From: Escherichia phage MN04
Direction: 5' to 3' (one strand)
Sequence record: MT129654.1
DNA: 64,000 nt
Position 1 is the stretch's first letter. Each line of letters opens with the position of its first letter. Position numbers and translations under genes: made by a program. This document shows positions 1,898 through 30,940 of this stretch, in pieces. The notes below the pieces were generated by a model. The model was given only the letters and a program-made list of their open reading frames with translations. It made no database searches and was not told where the DNA came from.

Positions 1898-4108
1898 ATG
1901 ATTATTGAAACCGAAAAAGAACAAATCATTGGCAACGGCTCTAAGTCCACAGGATTTACTATCCAGGCTTCGCCTAAGGTCTTTAAAATTCTTTCATCAG
2001 ACCTTTATAGTAATAAGGTACGTGCCGTAGTTCGTGAACTAATTACCAACATGATTGATGCTCATATTCTGAATGGTAATAAAGAACGTTGGAAAGTACA
2101 GGTTCCTGGTAAGCTCGACCCTCGCTTTGTGTGCCGTGATTTCGGCCCAGGTATGAGCGATTTCCAGATTCGTGGTGATGAAAACGAAACCGGTTTGTAT
2201 AACTCTTATTTCGCATCATCTAAAACTGCTTCTAATGATTTCATCGGCGGCTTTGGCCTTGGTTCAAAATCTCCGTTCAGTTATACCGAAACGTTTAATA
2301 TTACCTCATGGCACAATGGCGAAGTTCGCGGTTATGTAGCTTATATGGATGGTGATGGGCCGCAGATTAAACCTACTTTCGTAGAACCTATGCAGCCAGG
2401 TGATAAAACAGGTATCGAAATCACGGTTCCTGTCGATGAAGAAGATTTCCGTAAGTTTGAAACTGAAGTTCGATATATCATGCGTCCGTTCATTGGACTT
2501 GGCGATGTTGACGGTGTTGAAGTTGATTATTTCCCTGAATTTGAAGACTACTATCCTGTAACCACTACAAATTATGGCAGCTTCGAACGTTCAGGACTTT
2601 ATGCAGTTTATGGTGGTATTGTTTATCCATTGGATTCTGCTTATAATAAAGGCACATGGATGCGTACTCGCCATGATGTAGTTTATATTAAGTTCCCTAT
2701 GGGTTCGCTGGATATTGCTCCGTCTCGTGAAGTGTTGTCTCTTGATAAACGTACGATGGAAAATATTGCAACCCGTATCGAAGCACTGGATGCAGTGGTC
2801 TTTAAAAACGATACACAAGAATGGGTTGAATCTGATAATCCACGCCATGTTTATCGCGACCTTTCTAACCTTGGTTACAGTGCTCGTGACTATCTTACCA
2901 AAAAAGGTGGGACTAGCCTGTTTACTACAGAAAAATTGACATATGAGAAATTATACCAACGTTACACACTTCAAAACGACCTTATTAATTTAGGTGTGGT
3001 TTACGAAATCGTTTCAGACCCACGTTTGAAACGAATTAAGCCGAGTGGTAATACTTCTTCGGTGGCAGGACTTAGTAGCCTATTAGGCATTAATAATAAA
3101 GAAATCCATATTGTTTATGATGATGAAAAGGGTCGTGTGCCACTAGTTCGAGGACTTTGGGCTCTGGCAATGGACAACAGTGCTTCGGCTAAGAAAATTG
3201 TTAAAGAGAACAATATTCCTAAATACGGAACCGACCTTATTTTTGTCGACCCAAATTCAATGCTGCAAATGCAACAACTTGAAAAGGTTAAAGAACTTTT
3301 TAAAGGTGACACTATTCATTTTTATAAAGTCTCTGAACTGAATAAAATTGTTAAGCCATGGATTCCGGTTACTGTCCGTTCATCAGAACCTCGTCCTAAA
3401 ACACCAAGTGCTTATCGTTGGTTCATTAAAGACGGACGTTGGCAACAAGAGACCTTGTACTTAACTGCTGCAGAAGCAGAAGAAATTACAGGGTACGTAT
3501 TGTTTGGTAGTCGTTCTGATATCATGGGAATGGACGAAGCTTATGGTATCTTTGACATCAACACCACTACCATGTGTCGTATGGCTAATTTGATTGGTGC
3601 TACCGAATTCCATATCATTCGTCCTCAAATTGCCAAAAAGATTAAAAAGTTAGGCCAATGTGAATGCTTGATGGAAACCACGTTAGAAGCTTATGCCCAA
3701 GCCTTAGACGAAGTAGATGTTGACGATTACCTTGGTAGTAACACCCGTGCAAGATATTATCTTGAAATCATTGCCAAGTTCCCTGAGCTAGGTTTCATGA
3801 CCAAGTATTTCAGTGATAAGCCGGTGTCTGAAGCATATACTCGTCTGAGCAATTTCTATGATATATTCCGTTATATGAATTTCCATGGCTATATCACTGA
3901 TGACAAGCTTTCAGTTATCAAGAAAATTTGTAACACGACGTTCTATACGTTAACCGAAAATGCTTCAAGTAACAATGATAAAATGACTATACAGTTTGAA
4001 TCTGATTACCATTTAGTTTCGGACTACATGTATCGTCGTGGAACATCCATTACCGAGGCTTCTGTAGCTCAAATCGTTAAATTCATGAAAGCCGTGGAAG
4101 CGGCTTAA
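1898..4108 (+). CDS. rIIA: rIIA membrane-associated protein (lysis-inhibition / rapid-lysis locus)
   Basis: 736 aa; N-terminal MIIETEKEQIIGNGSK...RELITNMIDAH ATPase-like region recalled for T4 rIIA; synteny. Confidence 0.9.
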   Translation: MIIETEKEQIIGNGSKSTGFTIQASPKVFKILSSDLYSNKVRAVVRELITNMIDAHILNGNKERWKVQVPGKLDPRFVCRDFGPGMSDFQIRGDENETGLYNSYFASSKTASNDFIGGFGLGSKSPFSYTETFNITSWHNGEVRGYVAYMDGDGPQIKPTFVEPMQPGDKTGIEITVPVDEEDFRKFETEVRYIMRPFIGLGDVDGVEVDYFPEFEDYYPVTTTNYGSFERSGLYAVYGGIVYPLDSAYNKGTWMRTRHDVVYIKFPMGSLDIAPSREVLSLDKRTMENIATRIEALDAVVFKNDTQEWVESDNPRHVYRDLSNLGYSARDYLTKKGGTSLFTTEKLTYEKLYQRYTLQNDLINLGVVYEIVSDPRLKRIKPSGNTSSVAGLSSLLGINNKEIHIVYDDEKGRVPLVRGLWALAMDNSASAKKIVKENNIPKYGTDLIFVDPNSMLQMQQLEKVKELFKGDTIHFYKVSELNKIVKPWIPVTVRSSEPRPKTPSAYRWFIKDGRWQQETLYLTAAEAEEITGYVLFGSRSDIMGMDEAYGIFDINTTTMCRMANLIGATEFHIIRPQIAKKIKKLGQCECLMETTLEAYAQALDEVDVDDYLGSNTRARYYLEIIAKFPELGFMTKYFSDKPVSEAYTRLSNFYDIFRYMNFHGYITDDKLSVIKKICNTTFYTLTENASSNNDKMTIQFESDYHLVSDYMYRRGTSITEASVAQIVKFMKAVEAA

Positions 4109-26074: not shown

Positions 26075-26980
26075 ATGTTTAAACGTAAAGACCCTTCCCA
26101 ACTGGCTGCTCAACTGTCTGCAATGAAAGGTGGTTCTTCTTTCTCTTCCGATGATAAAGCTGAATGGAAATTGAAAGATGACAATGGTGTTGGTACTGCG
26201 GTAATTCGTTTCCTACCTTCGAAAAACGAAGAAAATCCATCTCCATTCGTTAAGCTCGTTAACCACGGCTTTAAGAAAAATGGTCAATGGTACATTGAAA
26301 ACTGTACGTCTACTCACGGTGATTTCGATTCTTGTCCTGTATGTAAATACATGAACCAGAACGATACATATAATACTAATAACGCCGAATACAAACTGAT
26401 GAAACGTAAAACTTCCTTCTGGGCTAACATCCTTGTTATTAAGGATAGTGCAGTGCCTGCTAACGAAGGTAAAGTGTTTAAATTCCGTTTCGGTCAGAAA
26501 ATTATGGATAAAATCAACCAGATGGTTGAAGTTGATACTGATATTGGTGAAGTGCCGGTTGACGTAACATGTCCGTTTGATGGTGCTAACTTCGTACTGA
26601 AATCTAAGAAAGTTGGCGACTTCAAAAACTACGACGATTCCAAATTCATGGGTCAGTCTGAAATTCCTAACATCAATGATGAAGCTTACCAAGCTAAATT
26701 GATGGAAGAAATGCACGACCTTTCTAAACTGCTCGAGTTCAAATCCTTTGAAACTAACGAAGCCAAGTTTAAGAAAGTTGTTGGTACTGCTGCTCTTGGT
26801 GGTGCTGCCGCTAAAGCTTCTGCAGCTGCTGATAAGATTGGTGATGACCTGGACGCATTCAGTGCAGACCTTGATGCATATGATTCCAAACCGTCTACAC
26901 CGGCCCGTTCCACTACTCCTGAACCATCAGTAAGTCCTTCTGATGACGATGGTCTGGACGACCTGTTAGCTGGTCTATAA
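26075..26980 (+). CDS. 32: single-stranded DNA-binding protein gp32
   Basis: 301 aa; [36 protein letters not shown] and acidic C-terminal tail as in T4 gp32. Confidence 0.9.
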
Positions 26981-26997
26981 GTTATTGATTTATAATG

Positions 26998-27022
26998 GGA
27001 AGACTTCGGTCTTCCCTTTTTG
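26998..27022 (+). terminator. rho-independent terminator after gene 32
   Basis: GGGAAGAC-TTCG-GTCTTCCC hairpin + TTTTT. Confidence 0.65.
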
Positions 27023-27032
27023 GCATTTAATG

Positions 27033-27061
27033 GTTTACAATGCCTTTAAACATGATACTAT
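27033..27061 (+). promoter_or_regulatory. early promoter cassette
   Basis: GTTTAC, 17 nt, TACTAT, then TCCTATCAACTA. Confidence 0.5.
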
Positions 27062-27090
27062 AGTCCTATCAACTACATGAGGAAATAAAA

Positions 27091-27462
27091 ATGGAAATTG
27101 GTAAATTTTACGTATTAGACCCTGCTGCCAAAAAACAATTCATCGCTGGTAGTCCTGATGATAATTATAATTCGTGCATAGTAAGATTGTTGGAACAACA
27201 TGGCAATTCCTTCAAAGTCCTGGATATGAGTTATATTGAAGGTGATTATTTTGTTGAAAAAGTTGAAATGAAAGATGGCACCATCCTGAATAGTATGGGC
27301 GGTGCTGATGAGTACTTTGAACTCGGTGAATGGGAATTCTGTCACTTCCTGGAAGTTGATGGCGATGCTCCTGCCGTTGATACCCAAACTATCCATGTAC
27401 AGGTAAACCACAAAAATGCGGCAGAAGTTGTTGCCTTGATTAAAGCTACCTTTGGAATTTAA
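27091..27462 (+). CDS. hypothetical protein (123 aa), paralog A
   Basis: ATG after GAGGAAATAAAA SD; shares (E/D)EYFEL..E.EF..F motif with next ORF. Confidence 0.4.
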   Translation: MEIGKFYVLDPAAKKQFIAGSPDDNYNSCIVRLLEQHGNSFKVLDMSYIEGDYFVEKVEMKDGTILNSMGGADEYFELGEWEFCHFLEVDGDAPAVDTQTIHVQVNHKNAAEVVALIKATFGI

Positions 27463-27464
27463 AA

Positions 27465-27848
27465 ATGAAAATTGGTAAAAAATACGAACTTCGCCCTGAG
27501 TGTATCAAAGCTTTTATTAATATCACCCCTATCAATAATAATGATATGGTCGATATTATCCAAGAAAACGGCGGGTGGTTTGAAGTAAAGGATACAATGA
27601 CCACAGATGGGGATAAATTTGTAACTAAAATCAAATGTGCTAATGGCAAGATTTTTAGTGCAGATGGAACACTAGAGGAATATTTTGAATTGCATGAAGA
27701 TGAGTTCTATTGCTTCCGTGAATATGATGGACAAGATGAAGTTGACAAACCTGTTACTAAGACCGGCGTGACCCAAATCCATTGCATTGTCACTGAACAG
27801 AACGTCGACCAAATTATTGAACTTTTGCAAAAAACTTTTAAGGCCTAA
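27465..27848 (+). CDS. hypothetical protein (127 aa), paralog B
   Basis: Adjacent to paralog A, similar length and shared motif. Confidence 0.4.
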   Translation: MKIGKKYELRPECIKAFINITPINNNDMVDIIQENGGWFEVKDTMTTDGDKFVTKIKCANGKIFSADGTLEEYFELHEDEFYCFREYDGQDEVDKPVTKTGVTQIHCIVTEQNVDQIIELLQKTFKA

Positions 27849-27849
27849 C

Positions 27850-28110
27850 ATGACTAAAGATGATTTCCTGGATGCAGTAGAAAAAGCCAGTGAGAAATTT
27901 GAAGTGATGGGTGTACGAGTTCATAAAGACCGAAATTACGGCCTCGATATCCAAACGTATTCGTTATGGCTTGTAGGCGAACATAGTCTTGTAACCACCT
28001 TAGTTATGGGTGTTGATGCTCAACCCTTACTGGTTAAATTCAGAAGTATGGAAAAAGCTACCAAAGAAATGATTAAACTTGGTAAATGGCTTGATAAAAT
28101 TCAAAAATAA
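27850..28110 (+). CDS. hypothetical protein (86 aa)
   Basis: First ATG in track ORF 27787; overlaps upstream stop. Confidence 0.35.
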   Translation: MTKDDFLDAVEKASEKFEVMGVRVHKDRNYGLDIQTYSLWLVGEHSLVTTLVMGVDAQPLLVKFRSMEKATKEMIKLGKWLDKIQK

Positions 28111-28112
28111 AT

Positions 28113-28148
28113 GTTTACAAGGTCTATAGGCATGATACTATAGACCTA
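28113..28148 (+). promoter_or_regulatory. early promoter cassette with stem-loop around -10
   Basis: GTTTAC, 17 nt, TACTAT; AGGTCTATAG/CTATAGACCT inverted repeat. Confidence 0.5.
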
Positions 28149-28173
28149 TCAACTAACGAGTGAGGAAAATAAA

Positions 28174-28401
28174 ATGGCTAAGGTTAATATTGATATCGTT
28201 GATTTTGAATACACTTACGAAGTTATCCGTAATCGTTATCCTTCTTTGACTATGACTTATATCAAAGACACACAATTCTGTAGTATGCAAATTGAAGTCC
28301 AAGGTCCTCTTGAAGACCTTACCCGCTTTATGGCTGATGAATATTGCGATGGTATGCATGCTGAAGACGCTGAATTTTATATGGGCTTAATTCAAAAATA
28401 A
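28174..28401 (+). CDS. hypothetical protein (75 aa)
   Basis: ATG after GAGGAAAATAAA SD; own promoter cassette. Confidence 0.4.
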
Positions 28402-28403
28402 GT

Positions 28404-28440
28404 GTTTACCTAAGGCTATGGTAGTGATACTATAGCCTTA
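28404..28440 (+). promoter_or_regulatory. early promoter cassette with stem-loop around -10
   Basis: GTTTAC, 17 nt, ATACTA; AAGGCTAT/ATAGCCTT inverted repeat. Confidence 0.5.
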
Positions 28441-28459
28441 TCAATTTGAGGAGAATAAA

Positions 28460-28699
28460 ATGAAATTACAACGTGAATCAATTAAAGATTCTGAAGTTAA
28501 AGGCAAATGGTACTTCACAATCCAAGGTAACAATCCGGAAGCTCTGGAAAAAGCCGAACAAGCTTTGTGTGAAATGGGCTGGAAAGATGAGTGTGATGGA
28601 TGTCCTCTTTATGAAGATGGTAGCTCATCTGGTTTCTGGATTCACCATTCCGATGTTGATCAATTTAAAGCTGACTGGAAAGTCGCTAAGAAAGCATGA
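28460..28699 (+). CDS. hypothetical protein (79 aa)
   Basis: ATG after GAGGAGAATAAA SD; own promoter cassette. Confidence 0.4.
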   Translation: MKLQRESIKDSEVKGKWYFTIQGNNPEALEKAEQALCEMGWKDECDGCPLYEDGSSSGFWIHHSDVDQFKADWKVAKKA

Positions 28700-28709
28700 G
28701 GAAAATATA

Positions 28710-28954
28710 ATGCAAATTACTATAAATTTAAAAGAGTTTACTGGTACTGAAGCAGAATTAGATAGACTTTATAATAATACAGCATATGACGAATCCTTTT
28801 GGGTCAGGGACCGTTATGAAAACCTCCATAAGGTGTCTTTGGCCTGGGAGCAAGGCCGTGGTAATAATTATCGTTTTGTTAAGGGTGATATTTCCTATTA
28901 TAACCATCATGACATCATTTGGCCAAACGATATCACACATGTTGAGGTGCTATA

Positions 28955-28955
<1 letters not shown>
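28710..28955 (+). CDS. hypothetical protein (81 aa)
   Basis: ATG after GAGGAAAATATA SD; track ORF 28473 over-extends upstream. Confidence 0.35.
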
Positions 28956-30076
<1,121 letters not shown>

Positions 30077-30077
<1 letters not shown>

Positions 30078-30940
30078 TGAAACAATACCAATTTTTAATT
30101 AAAGATATCCTGGAAAATGGCTACGAAACCGACGACCGTACCGGCACCGGTACAATTGCACTGTTCGGTACTAAATTACGTTTTGATTTAACTAAAGGCT
30201 TTCCTGCAGTAACAACTAAAAAATTAGCATGGAAAGCCTGTATTGCTGAGCTCCTTTGGTTCCTTTCAGGTTCAACTAACGTTAACGACCTTCGTTTCCG
30301 TACTCACGGTTCATTAATTGACGGTAAAACTATTTGGGACGAGAATTATGAAAATCAGGCCAAAGATTTAGGTTATCATAGCGGTGAACTCGGTCCTGTA
30401 TATGGGAAACAATGGCGAGATTTTGGTGGTGTCGACCAGGTTGTAGAAATCATCGACCGTATTAAAAAGATGCCTAATGACCGACGTCAAATCGTATCTG
30501 CATGGAACCCGGCTGAAATCAACCAGATGGCTCTTCCACCATGTCATTGTTTTTATCAGTTCAACGTTCGTAACGGCCATCTTGACCTCCAGTGGTACCA
30601 ACGTTCGGTTGACGTGTTCTTAGGATTGCCATTTAATATCGCCTCTTACGCCGCTCTTGTGCATATTGTAGCTAAGATGTGTAATCTTATTCCGGGTGAT
30701 TTAGTGTTCTCAGGCGGCAATACGCACATCTATTCTAACCACGTTGAACAATGCCAAGAAGTATTGCGGCGTGAACCTAAAGAGCTTTGTGAACTGGAAA
30801 TACGGTATTGGCATAAAGATTTCCATGAGTGGACAACAGAACAACAGTTGGCTTGGGTTACCGGAATGATGTATCCTGAAGACTTCGTTCTTAAAGGTTA
30901 CGAATCACACCCTACTATTAAGGCTAAAATGGCTGTATGA
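30077..30940 (+). CDS. td: thymidylate synthase (intron-less)
   Basis: Start moved to ATG 30077 (track 30065 is TTG); MKQYQFLIKDILENGYETDDRTGTGT and PPCHCFYQFNV active-site region; ORF uninterrupted. Confidence 0.9.

Follow-up and report, generated by a model that had tools for sequence, protein, structure and literature searches.

Frd.2a and Frd.2b of a Dhakavirus phage: a tandem of old paralogues in the family of the T4 early gene frd.2

Two adjacent small genes of Escherichia phage MN04 (record MT129654.1), located between gene 32 and frd in a variable region of small ORFs, are, judging from full-length alignment and family profiles, true paralogues that belong to the family of the T4 early gene frd.2 (PF03197). 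The downstream copy, B (frd.2b), is by identity and tree position the orthologue of T4 Frd.2, and the upstream copy, A (frd.2a), belongs to a separate second lineage that is common to Gaprivervirus and Gelderlandvirus phages. The tandem would have arisen once, in a distant ancestor; deletions and shifts of cassettes, at gene boundaries and at promoter repeats, would later have reshaped it. We are highly confident of this part of the explanation, which concerns identity and evolution; the explanation taken as a whole, including the mechanism proposed below, we consider slightly better than an even bet. The gene pair was already known, being named in GenBank and having its family curated in Pfam, and the discovery value is therefore small. 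What is added here is that there are at least two old Frd.2 lineages, which co-occur in three genera, and that the C-terminal module, where the lineage-fixed differences concentrate, is under the strongest selection. This has the modest value of a lead on the role of Frd.2, a protein conserved across T4-like phages, with sequences in about 890 phage records. "The window" refers to the whole stretch of 64 kb that was analysed.

Identity of the gene pair

The two genes and their parts are as follows.

27091-27462, + strand: frd.2a (ORF-A), 123 aa, ATG start; 'a'-lineage paralogue of the Frd.2 family
27091-27357: frd.2a N-terminal domain (predicted barrel), aa 1-89; followed by a linker, aa 90-99
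27388-27459: frd.2a C-terminal module, aa 100-123
27465-27848, + strand: frd.2b (ORF-B), 127 aa, ATG start; T4 Frd.2 orthologue
27465-27725: frd.2b N-terminal domain, aa 1-87; followed by an acidic linker, aa 88-103
27774-27845: frd.2b C-terminal module, aa 104-127
27307..27363, + strand: signature motif in A, D73-EYFELGEWEFCHFLEVDG-91, at the barrel end
27675..27731, + strand: signature motif in B, E71-EYFELHEDEFYCFREYDG-89

A reading made previously from the sequence alone had described these adjacent ORFs as diverged paralogues, and their pairwise alignment bears this out: 47 of 127 positions are identical (37%) and 56% are positives over the full length (BLASTP, E 1e-23), a value that excludes chance-level similarity, the outcome that this reading had named as speaking against it. 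Both proteins match Pfam family PF03197 ("Bacteriophage FRD2") at about four times the gathering threshold of 29 bits (A, 113 bits, E 1.1e-32; B, 132.7 bits, E 8.2e-39), with residues 29-122 of A and 27-126 of B covering model positions 1-95/96, and both match phrog_622 over model positions 4-131/132. NCBIfam holds no family for the pair, no catalytic family is found among the Pfam or NCBIfam matches of either protein, and no further Frd.2-family member is present elsewhere within the 64-kb window.

The N-terminal motif M(E/K)IGK(F/K)Y that had been noticed is indeed present, as MEIGKFY in A and MKIGKKY in B. The second motif is also real in both ORFs, although it had been written with one wildcard too many after EYFEL; its correct form is (E/D)EYFEL.E.EF..F.E.DG. 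Signature residues E82, F83, F86 and E88 are invariant in a 37-sequence alignment.

The window belongs to a Dhakavirus, with 99.2% DNA identity to phage JS10, and correspondence with the JS10 annotation places the pair between gene 32 and frd, as had been proposed. Window positions 26900-28200 show 99.2% and 98.1% DNA identity to JS10 and JS98 (EU863409 and EF469154, respectively), with alike gene order and spacing; the JS10 Frd.2a protein is 100% identical to A, and nothing of substance distinguishes these phages from the window pair. GenBank already names both genes frd.2a and frd.2b in JS10, JS98 and SP18. The genes are thus not anonymous.

Gene neighbourhood and expression

The surrounding features are given below; gene 32 and frd are placed by correspondence with the JS10 annotation.

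26075-26980: gene 32
26997..27016, + strand: predicted intrinsic terminator after gene 32, GGGAAGAC-TTCG-GTCTTCCC, then a T run
27028..27075, + strand: T4-type early promoter cassette, copy 1, upstream of frd.2a
27079..27083, + strand: Shine-Dalgarno sequence of frd.2a, GAGGA, 7 nt 5' of the ATG
27850..28110, + strand: orf86, 86 aa, third gene of the unit; phrog_4423
28108..28155, + strand: early-promoter cassette with stem-loop (PeSL type), stem 28120-28147
29293-29874: frd

The predicted terminator behind gene 32 (an 8-bp stem with 5 GC pairs and a T tail; -14.1 kcal/mol, z -4.2) would separate this gene from the frd.2 unit. A sigma-70-type early promoter-like cassette follows at 27034-27061, with TTTACA as the -35 box at 27034, a 16-nt spacer and an extended -10 box TG..TACTAT that ends at 27061, which matches the consensus TTTACW-N17-TAYWAT of T4/PST-type cassettes (PMC4122927). 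The 48-nt cassette (GTTTAC...TGATACTAT) is present in three copies, at 27028-27075, 28108-28155 and 28400-28447, in agreement with the setting of promoter-bounded small ORFs that had been proposed. Folding of all three copies gave stem-loops for the second (-15.4 kcal/mol, z -5.3) and the third (z -4.5), and none for the copy before frd.2a (z 0.08). In addition, a TGAGGA(A/G)AATAAAATG motif is repeated 5' of four genes in the region.

The frd.2a stop codon (TAA, 27460-27462) is separated by 2 nt from the frd.2b ATG, and frd.2b has no strong Shine-Dalgarno sequence of its own; translation of the two genes is therefore probably coupled. The ATG of orf86 lies 1 nt past the frd.2b stop. This gene has no Pfam match; those Dhakavirus and Gaprivervirus relatives that were examined have it directly 3' of the A copy, or of the B copy if A is missing or located elsewhere. 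No promoter-like or terminator-like site was found between frd.2a, frd.2b and orf86, and the three genes are predicted to be read, as one transcript, from a single early promoter, with the cassette at 28108..28155 probably closing this unit and opening the frd.3 unit. T4 frd.2 has likewise been described as an early gene (PMC12152347). An Rfam search of the whole window gave no match, and so no known RNA element accounts for the region.

Two old lineages

Several observations indicate that the split between A and B is old. Synonymous sites between them are saturated (pS 0.67), and B shares 60% amino acid identity with T4 Frd.2 (52-62% with Tequatrovirus records generally), compared with the 37% it shares with A. 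In a neighbour-joining tree of about 120 columns with midpoint rooting, which neither dates the duplication nor excludes lateral transfer of one copy, the a clade is recovered in 99 of 100 bootstrap replicates, the b clade, including T4 Frd.2, in 100 of 100, and A and B as exclusive sisters in none of 100. The same A→B tandem is present in the Gelderlandvirus phages S16 and UTK0003, and the UTK0003 counterparts are 61-64% identical to those of the window (A about 63%, B about 61%). The dN/dS values of both copies (0.09-0.28; A 0.09-0.27) show that both are kept by purifying selection.

T4 Frd.2 (T4p241, NP_049852; PF03197, phrog_622) and B are of the same length class and fall in the same clade (100/100), and both T4 Frd.2 and the window pair are encoded between gene 32 and frd. 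T4, however, has one copy, in the order 32-frd.3-frd.2-frd.1-frd, whereas the window phage has two directly after gene 32, followed by orf86, a gene not listed in the T4 record for this interval. A shares the Pfam family but not the orthology: it falls in the separate clade, is 31-35% (about 33%) identical to Tequatrovirus proteins, and lacks Cys58, Cys83 and Cys107, which are conserved in the b lineage only.

Rearrangements among relatives and origin of the tandem

A survey of related phages showed that the contiguous A→B arrangement is one of several. Bp7 and VR25 have A only; dhabil, IME08 and T4 have B only; and in UPEC07 (b'-frd.3-a) and IME341 both are present in other orders, the IME341 segment that matches window positions 27049-27465 being located behind frd.3. 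SP18 (GQ981382) and many Gaprivervirus phages possess both lineages but not the contiguous arrangement. The junctions involve a direct repeat at the two gene starts.

27086..27105, + strand: 20-nt direct repeat, copy 1, TAAAAATG(G/A)AAATTGGTAAA, at the 5' end of frd.2a
27460..27479, + strand: 20-nt direct repeat, copy 2, spanning the frd.2a stop and the frd.2b start

What the B-only relatives lack is the 374-bp A segment, precisely between the two repeats, and in dhabil, IME08 and IME341, which have no A at the frd.2a position, the junction consists of the 20-nt repeat, over which the alignments overlap. In Bp7 and VR25, B is missing exactly from TAA to TAA. The breakpoints coincide exactly with gene boundaries or lie within promoter cassettes. 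We infer that the B-only phages would have arisen by deletion of A between the repeats, and the A-only phages by a precise loss of B that reaches from one stop codon to the next, and that A would also have been relocated behind frd.3.

A different history is that A and B were alternative cassettes of one slot and became joined through unequal or illegitimate exchange during co-infection. The A-only, B-only and rearranged configurations of close relatives, the position of the breakpoints and the demonstrable mobility of the A cassette (IME341, UPEC07) are all in line with such an assembly, and shuffling by promoter/stem-loop cassettes is a published mechanism in T4-like phages (PMC2839356, PMC4122927). 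As in the PeSL cassettes described by Arbiol (2010) and Comeau (2014), repeated early-promoter cassettes bound small-ORF units here, two of the three form a strong stem-loop that spans the spacer and the -10 region, and one breakpoint lies inside a cassette (the IME341 homology starts at window position 27049). However, the cassette before frd.2a has no stem-loop, and the junctions at which A or B was lost are at gene starts and stops, away from the cassettes. Moreover, inheritance is the simpler account of an A→B order found in both Dhakavirus and Gelderlandvirus, the 20-nt repeat would make A easy to lose from a tandem, with which the B-only junctions agree, and an ultimate duplication would still be needed to produce the two lineages. 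We therefore regard assembly by recombination as unlikely, though it deserves to be kept in mind.

The sequence-only reading had proposed a local duplication followed by divergence. The genes lie next to each other on one strand and have the same length, and a 39-nt stretch at their 5' ends shows 77% DNA identity, features that a recent in-situ duplication in the lineage of the window phage would produce. This explanation conflicts with the saturated synonymous sites, with the closer relationship of B to T4 Frd.2 than to A, with the well-supported separate clades and with the presence of both lineages in the same order in Gelderlandvirus, and we consider it very improbable. Recent transfer of a-type genes from a JS98-like phage is similarly opposed by the identities of 63-85% found in other genera. 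The term "local duplication" is thus correct in that the genes are paralogues, and misleading as to a recent or local origin, because their split is old and shared beyond the window phage. That the similarity is accidental, or that either ORF is spurious, is refuted by the alignment E-value, by Pfam scores above threshold for both, by dN/dS well below 1 and by confident structural models, and nothing was found in its favour, leaving it a negligible probability.

Conservation of the C-terminal module

The C-terminal module is the part under the strongest constraint: majority-residue conservation reaches 0.98 in the a lineage and 0.85 in the b lineage, whereas the barrel has 0.80 and 0.77. In this module pN is near 0 while pS is 0.22-0.82, and the constraint must therefore act on the protein and not on the DNA. 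A DNA or RNA element as the cause of the extreme conservation of the A C-terminus was considered and ruled out, since synonymous sites there have diverged as much as those elsewhere. Of fourteen alignment columns in which the a and b lineages have each fixed a different residue, eight are located in the C-terminal module.

Predicted structure

Structure prediction gave the same topology for both proteins, with mean confidence values in the AF2 models (pLDDT) of 87.8 for A and 84.7 for B. Each model has an SH3-like barrel, an acidic linker of low pLDDT and the conserved C-terminal helix. The strands of A comprise residues 6-9, 40-49, 52-60, 65-67 and 86-89, with equivalents in B, and in both models strands 1 and 2 are separated by a pair of inserted helices (residues 11-37). 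Foldseek searches of BFVD with the B model retrieved GoF of phage VR7 (E 6.4e-6), T4 MotB.1 (P39415; E 1.3e-4) and an 85-aa protein consisting of the barrel only (TMt 0.91). Against the PDB, neither model gave a match below E 0.3, so no function can be transferred from a solved structure, and a PDB sequence search with B gave a best E of 0.11. SH3-like small barrels (FeoA, the C-terminal Tudor domain of PcrA/UvrD, chromo/Tudor) do appear, all at E >0.3 and none significant, while Hfq/LSm is absent from the matches; they share no sequence similarity with Frd.2, whose barrel, unlike theirs, has the two inserted helices. These resemblances, taken from the models, indicate a fold class, and neither membership nor function.

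The models agree with the description of a GoF/MotB.1/Frd.2 family by Kim et al. (2025), with a bent antiparallel five-stranded N-terminal barrel, a flexible linker and a C-terminal domain. T4 GoF and MotB.1 are, like Frd.2, early, non-essential, small phage proteins, but their genes are at other loci and none is present in the 64-kb window. Alignment of the Frd.2 profile to T4 GoF and MotB.1 with hhalign gave probabilities of 2.6% and 1.2%; as these are not significant, the link to GoF and MotB.1 stands solely on predicted structure.

Possible function

We propose, with low confidence, that Frd.2a and Frd.2b are each a small, acidic, non-enzymatic, early-expressed binding protein, in which an SH3/Tudor-like beta-barrel is joined through a disordered acidic linker to a strand-helix module at the C-terminus that is very conserved. 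The target of Frd.2 would be a macromolecule of the host or the phage, with a protein more likely than RNA, and the C-terminal module would carry lineage-specific specificity, so that A and B would differ in the partners, or variants of a partner, that they recognise. On the side of this proposal are the lack of a catalytic match, an all-acidic family and the concentration of lineage differences in the C-terminal module; on the other side is the published family hypothesis of an RNA-related role (PMC12152347).

According to that hypothesis (Kim et al. 2025), the GoF/MotB.1/Frd.2 family is LSm-like, and Frd.2a and Frd.2b would be RNA-binding proteins of an LSm/Hfq-like type that influence how stable the mRNAs of phage or host are, or how they are translated. 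The B model does match those of GoF and MotB.1, and GoF(D25Y) has a stabilising effect on the gene 41 leader RNA; functional data for the family are limited to this gain-of-function mutant, wild-type GoF and MotB.1 had no effect on the leader RNA, and Frd.2 was outside that assay (PMC12152347). Composition also speaks against this role: all sampled family members are acidic (n=54, pI 4.05-5.27), and the 15 tabulated members have 7-15 K+R against 13-31 D+E. The acidic pI of A and B themselves (4.5-4.7) is circumstantial evidence against general RNA binding. Canonical Sm, LSm and Hfq proteins have an N-terminal helix and then five consecutive strands carrying Sm1 and Sm2, and form hexamer or heptamer rings that bind RNA. 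This topology is absent from both models, in which strand 1 comes first and the helices precede strand 2, and the 50 matches listed from each PDB search include no Sm, LSm or Hfq structure. An RNA-binding role consequently seems doubtful to us.

Alternatively, A and B could be functionally redundant, serving as dosage or back-up copies of which one is enough. Natural A-only (Bp7, VR25) and B-only (dhabil, IME08, T4) phages are viable, which could mean that the copies are interchangeable and not specialised, and amber mutants of T4 frd.2 plate normally (PMC12152347). Redundancy is difficult to reconcile with purifying selection having kept both copies since before the genera separated, and with the lineage-fixed columns, which are concentrated in the most conserved module and include the b-only Cys triad; it appears less probable still than RNA binding.

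Within the proposal of binding proteins, a more specific possibility, which we put forward only tentatively, is that one early binding protein with a 'takeover' or counter-defence role exists in the a and b lineages as variants of different specificity, with the C-terminal module tuned to different host targets or alleles; B may use a Cys3(His) metal or redox site for such targeting. If this is true, the patchwork of A-only, B-only and A+B configurations in Dhakavirus, Gaprivervirus and Gelderlandvirus would reflect host-range adaptation, and the natural variants would constitute a ready-made genetic system for frd.2 function. Single-copy and rearranged variants for comparative experiments already exist in nature.

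In a CRISPRi-ART screen of T4, frd.2 had a marginal fitness score (0.83, p 0.027) and was the only gene of unknown function scored 'Fit', the effect being weak. Polarity on the downstream frd.1 and frd was rejected as the cause of this score, both being 'Not fit'. As for distant members, P0070 shares the gene 32 locus, P0083 is surrounded by anonymous small ORFs, and neither context gave a functional clue. Matches to giant proteins in a representative search proved to be HCBP_related repeats, which we take to resemble the motif and do not count as family members. A locus search of IMG/VR returned 10 loci, mostly from isolate genomes already included in the GenBank phage survey.

Two paralogous members of the Frd.2 family

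The adjacent genes ORF-A (frd.2a) and ORF-B (frd.2b) align over their full length by BLASTP with 37% identity, 56% positives and an E-value of 1e-23, far better than chance; their similarity, which the sequence-only reading had taken as a sign of paralogy, is thus judged genuine. Profile searches make both proteins unambiguous members of PF03197 'Bacteriophage FRD2 protein', whose whole model is covered with 113 bits (A) and 132.7 bits (B; cutoff 29), and both match phrog_622. The N-terminal pattern M(E/K)IGK(F/K)Y had been given correctly for both proteins, and the central motif is real but had been written with one wildcard too many: its true form, (E/D)EYFEL.E.EF..F.E.DG, spans residues 73-91 of A and 71-89 of B.

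The gene pair is not new, because public records already carry its annotation and the family to which it belongs is curated. By megablast, the window belongs to Dhakavirus (T4-like, family Straboviridae), and positions 26900-28200 are 99.2% and 98.1% identical at the DNA level to JS10 and JS98, respectively, whose GenBank records name the genes frd.2a and frd.2b (product 'Frd.2 conserved hypothetical protein'); these names are also used in the record of Shigella phage SP18. A search with an HMM built from the Frd.2 family found no third copy in the 64-kb window.

The transcription unit

The pair does lie downstream of gene 32 (26075-26980) and upstream of frd (29293-29874), and early-promoter cassettes at both ends of the unit bear out the description of a promoter-bounded, variable region of small ORFs.

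Features of the unit
26997-27016, +, strong terminator hairpin 3' of gene 32
27034-27061, +, T4-type early promoter cassette (TTTACA, 16-nt spacer, TG-extended TACTAT)
Between promoter cassette and frd.2a, +, ribosome-binding site GAGGA, from the sequence
27091-27462, +, ORF-A (frd.2a), 123 aa
27465-27848, +, ORF-B (frd.2b), 127 aa
27850-28110, +, orf86, 86 codons, phrog_4423
28108-28155, +, next promoter cassette, 3' of orf86

The gap between the frd.2a stop and the frd.2b start is 2 nt, and that between the frd.2b stop and the orf86 start is 1 nt. We infer from the sequence features of this region that frd.2a, frd.2b and orf86 form a single early transcription unit, in which translation of frd.2b is probably coupled to that of frd.2a. 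A 48-nt promoter cassette is present in three copies, starting at 27028, 28108 and 28400. On folding, the second and third form strong stem-loops (-15.4 and -18.0 kcal/mol; z -5.3 and -4.5), and the first, which precedes frd.2a, gives no strong stem-loop. In early-promoter sequence, including the T4/PST-type consensus TTTACW-N17-TAYWAT (PMC4122927), and for the second and third copies also in the stem-loop, the cassettes agree with the PeSL promoter/stem-loop type described from T4-like phages (PMC4122927, PMC2839356). An Rfam scan of both strands of positions 1-64000 at the gathering threshold detected no known RNA family.

An old duplication and its probable later rearrangement

The view of a local duplication with divergence stands as far as true, diverged paralogues are concerned, but the duplication appears to be ancient and common to several genera rather than local. 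Four observations argue that it is not recent. Firstly, synonymous divergence between A and B has reached saturation (pS 0.67). Secondly, B is 60% identical to T4 Frd.2 and 52-62% identical to Tequatrovirus records in general, whereas A is only 31-35% identical to the latter. Thirdly, in a tree built by neighbour joining from 54 family members (representatives from a library of 1.84 billion proteins plus genes of annotated phages), the a-type genes fall into a clade of their own (bootstrap 99/100) and the b-type genes, including T4 Frd.2, into a separate one (100/100), the two being exclusive sisters in 0/100 replicates. Finally, in the S16-like Gelderlandvirus phage UTK0003, a b-type gene comes immediately after an a-type gene, the order seen in the window, with identities to the respective window copies of 63% (a-type) and 61% (b-type). 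The simplest reading of the sequences is a single old tandem duplication that was passed down to several genera.

A presence/absence survey in related phages, which had been suggested as a check, recovered A-only, B-only, A+B and rearranged relatives. Using tblastn, Frd.2-family genes were found at 966 separate places in 887 phage records, so that about 80 records are multi-copy. Genes of the a type, taken as those with at least 60% identity to A, are present in 66 records. The contiguous A→B junction occurs in 13 records of Dhakavirus, which represent about nine different phages, as well as in the S16 group, and many Gaprivervirus phages have both lineages arranged otherwise.

Arrangements downstream of gene 32
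32-A-B-orf86: JS98, JS10, IME281, dhaeg, CLB_P2
32-B-orf86: dhabil, IME08
32-A-orf86: Bp7
32-(85-aa barrel-only paralogue)-A-orf84: VR25
32-b'-frd.3-A-orf85: UPEC07, MN01
32-B-orf86-frd.3-A: IME341
32-frd.3-frd.2-frd.1: T4

Subsequent losses and the movement of cassettes probably produced the present diversity of arrangements. A 20-nt direct repeat, TAAAAATG(G/A)AAATTGGTAAA, lies at both gene starts (27086-27105 and 27460-27479), and the 374 bp carrying A that are absent from the B-only phages lie exactly between its copies, the outcome expected of recombination between the starts of the two genes. The A-only phages lack B precisely, from one stop codon to the other. The segment transposed in IME341 corresponds to 27049-27465, beginning inside the promoter cassette and ending at the start codon of the following gene.

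Further tandem sets were observed elsewhere, and the family seems prone to such multiplication. Mosigvirus LF82-8 has a Frd.2 pair of its own (L009, its locus, 2553-3363), and Escherichia phage A73 has three tandem family genes, A73_101, A73_102 and A73_103 (locus L006, 2028-3248), just 3' of its DNA polymerase genes. Since A73 belongs to the Vequintavirinae, the family reaches beyond the Tevenvirinae.

Selection and lineage-specific differences

As far as sequence can tell, both copies are functional: in comparisons with relatives, A has a dN/dS of 0.09-0.27 and B one of 0.08-0.28. The best-conserved part within each lineage is the C-terminal 22-24 residues, with mean majority-residue frequencies of 0.98 (a) and 0.85 (b), compared with 0.80 and 0.77 for the N-terminal domain. 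This conservation acts on the protein, because in several comparisons the C-terminal module (residues 100-123 of A, 104-127 of B) shows a pN of about 0 against a pS of 0.22-0.82. The module also holds 8 of the 14 columns that are fixed differently in the two lineages, its helix being Ala-rich and neutral in a and charged in b. The b lineage, T4 Frd.2 included, has three cysteines that are 89-95% conserved (C58, C83 and C107; window 27465-27845), all of which the a lineage lacks. A conserved histidine, H106, immediately precedes C107. A metal or redox site formed by these residues is possible.

Synonymous divergence of frd.2a (27091-27459) is uneven against IME341 (L014), UPEC07 (L003) and VR25 (L004): pS is 0.15-0.22 in the N-terminal domain and 0.59-0.70 in the last 24 codons. 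With few sites in the comparison, this is a weak hint that the gene may be an intragenic mosaic created by recombination.

Predicted structure and structural relatives

AlphaFold2 models built with an alignment of 37 sequences were confident (pLDDT 87.8 for A, 84.7 for B) and gave both proteins one common layout, structure prediction having been another of the suggested checks. In the N-terminal part, a short first strand, two helices and four more strands are predicted to form a small barrel that closes with the YFEL.E.EF..F.E motif; a low-confidence acidic linker and a C-terminal helix follow. Neither model had a significant structure match in the PDB (best E-values 0.58 and 0.31), the recurring weak matches being SH3-like barrels (FeoA, the PcrA/UvrD Tudor domain and chromo/Tudor domains), and the PDB sequence search was empty. 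Among predicted viral structures, the B model matched other Frd.2 proteins, VR7 GoF (E 6.4e-6) and T4 MotB.1 (E 1.3e-4); profile-sequence comparison of Frd.2 with GoF and MotB.1 was not significant. Kim et al. (2025) reported an N-terminal barrel common to Frd.2, GoF and MotB.1 (PMC12152347), a claim that the matches of our predicted model independently reproduce.

In VR25, an 85-aa ORF (L004 2178-2435) lies between gene 32 and the a-type frd.2. It matches the Frd.2 profile over the N-terminal barrel only (positions 1-87, E 1.9e-14), and its BFVD model superposes on the B model (TMt 0.91). It may represent the family's barrel as an independent protein, or else what truncation has left of a second copy. 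In a representative-library search, profile positions of about 22-71 matched many weak stretches in giant repeat proteins of 2,000-4,400 aa (P0082, P0085, P0086 and P0089). The two segments tested (P0082, P0086) are Pfam PF06594 HCBP_related repeats, for example ..VENFEFADGTV.. against Frd.2 FVEKVEMKDGTIL; remote homology and a convergent beta-hairpin motif are candidate readings of this likeness.

Function

Kim et al. termed the barrel 'LSm-like' and proposed an RNA-related role; the sole positive was mutant GoF(D25Y), wild-type GoF and MotB.1 being negative, and Frd.2 was shown only to be dispensable (amber mutant EOP about 1) (PMC12152347). In the dCas13d knock-down screen of Adler et al. 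(2025), frd.2 was the sole T4 'Fit' gene of unknown function (PMC11879866), with a marginal score (0.83, p 0.027; 3.29 for gene 32; supplementary table, PMC11879866). All 54 family members sampled (54/54) are acidic (pI 4.05-5.27), A having 21 D+E against 9 K+R. No Hfq or Sm structure was among the PDB matches listed for either model, and the canonical Sm fold has a strand order unlike that of the models. Based on this literature, the acidity, the lack of an Hfq/Sm match and the strand order, we tentatively rank a putative protein-binding role, in which a protein of the host or the phage would be inhibited or served by an adaptor, above RNA binding. Constraint and the differences between the lineages are both concentrated in the C-terminal module, which suggests that this part sets specificity. 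The remaining interest of the pair is that it constitutes a natural experiment on Frd.2 function.

Neighbouring genes

A 68-codon ORF encoding a basic protein (29871-30077) lies between frd and td, its start overlapping the frd stop; it has no annotation in JS10, and the records of dhabil, dhaeg and CLB_P2 list an ORF of equal length in the corresponding place behind frd as a hypothetical protein. The td gene (thymidylate synthase, 30065-30940) is a single unbroken ORF, whereas in T4 a group I intron with I-TevI interrupts the gene. The TTG listed as the start of the window gene, at 30065, is probably wrong; the start annotated in JS10 corresponds to an ATG a few codons further in (MKQYQFL...). 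In the region of window 28460-28955, a 122-codon ORF annotated in JS10 overlaps the 3' part of frd.1. This annotation probably has an over-extended start, an 81-codon ORF (28710-28955) with its own TGAGGAAAATATAATG start context and a match to phrog_4308 being better supported in the window.
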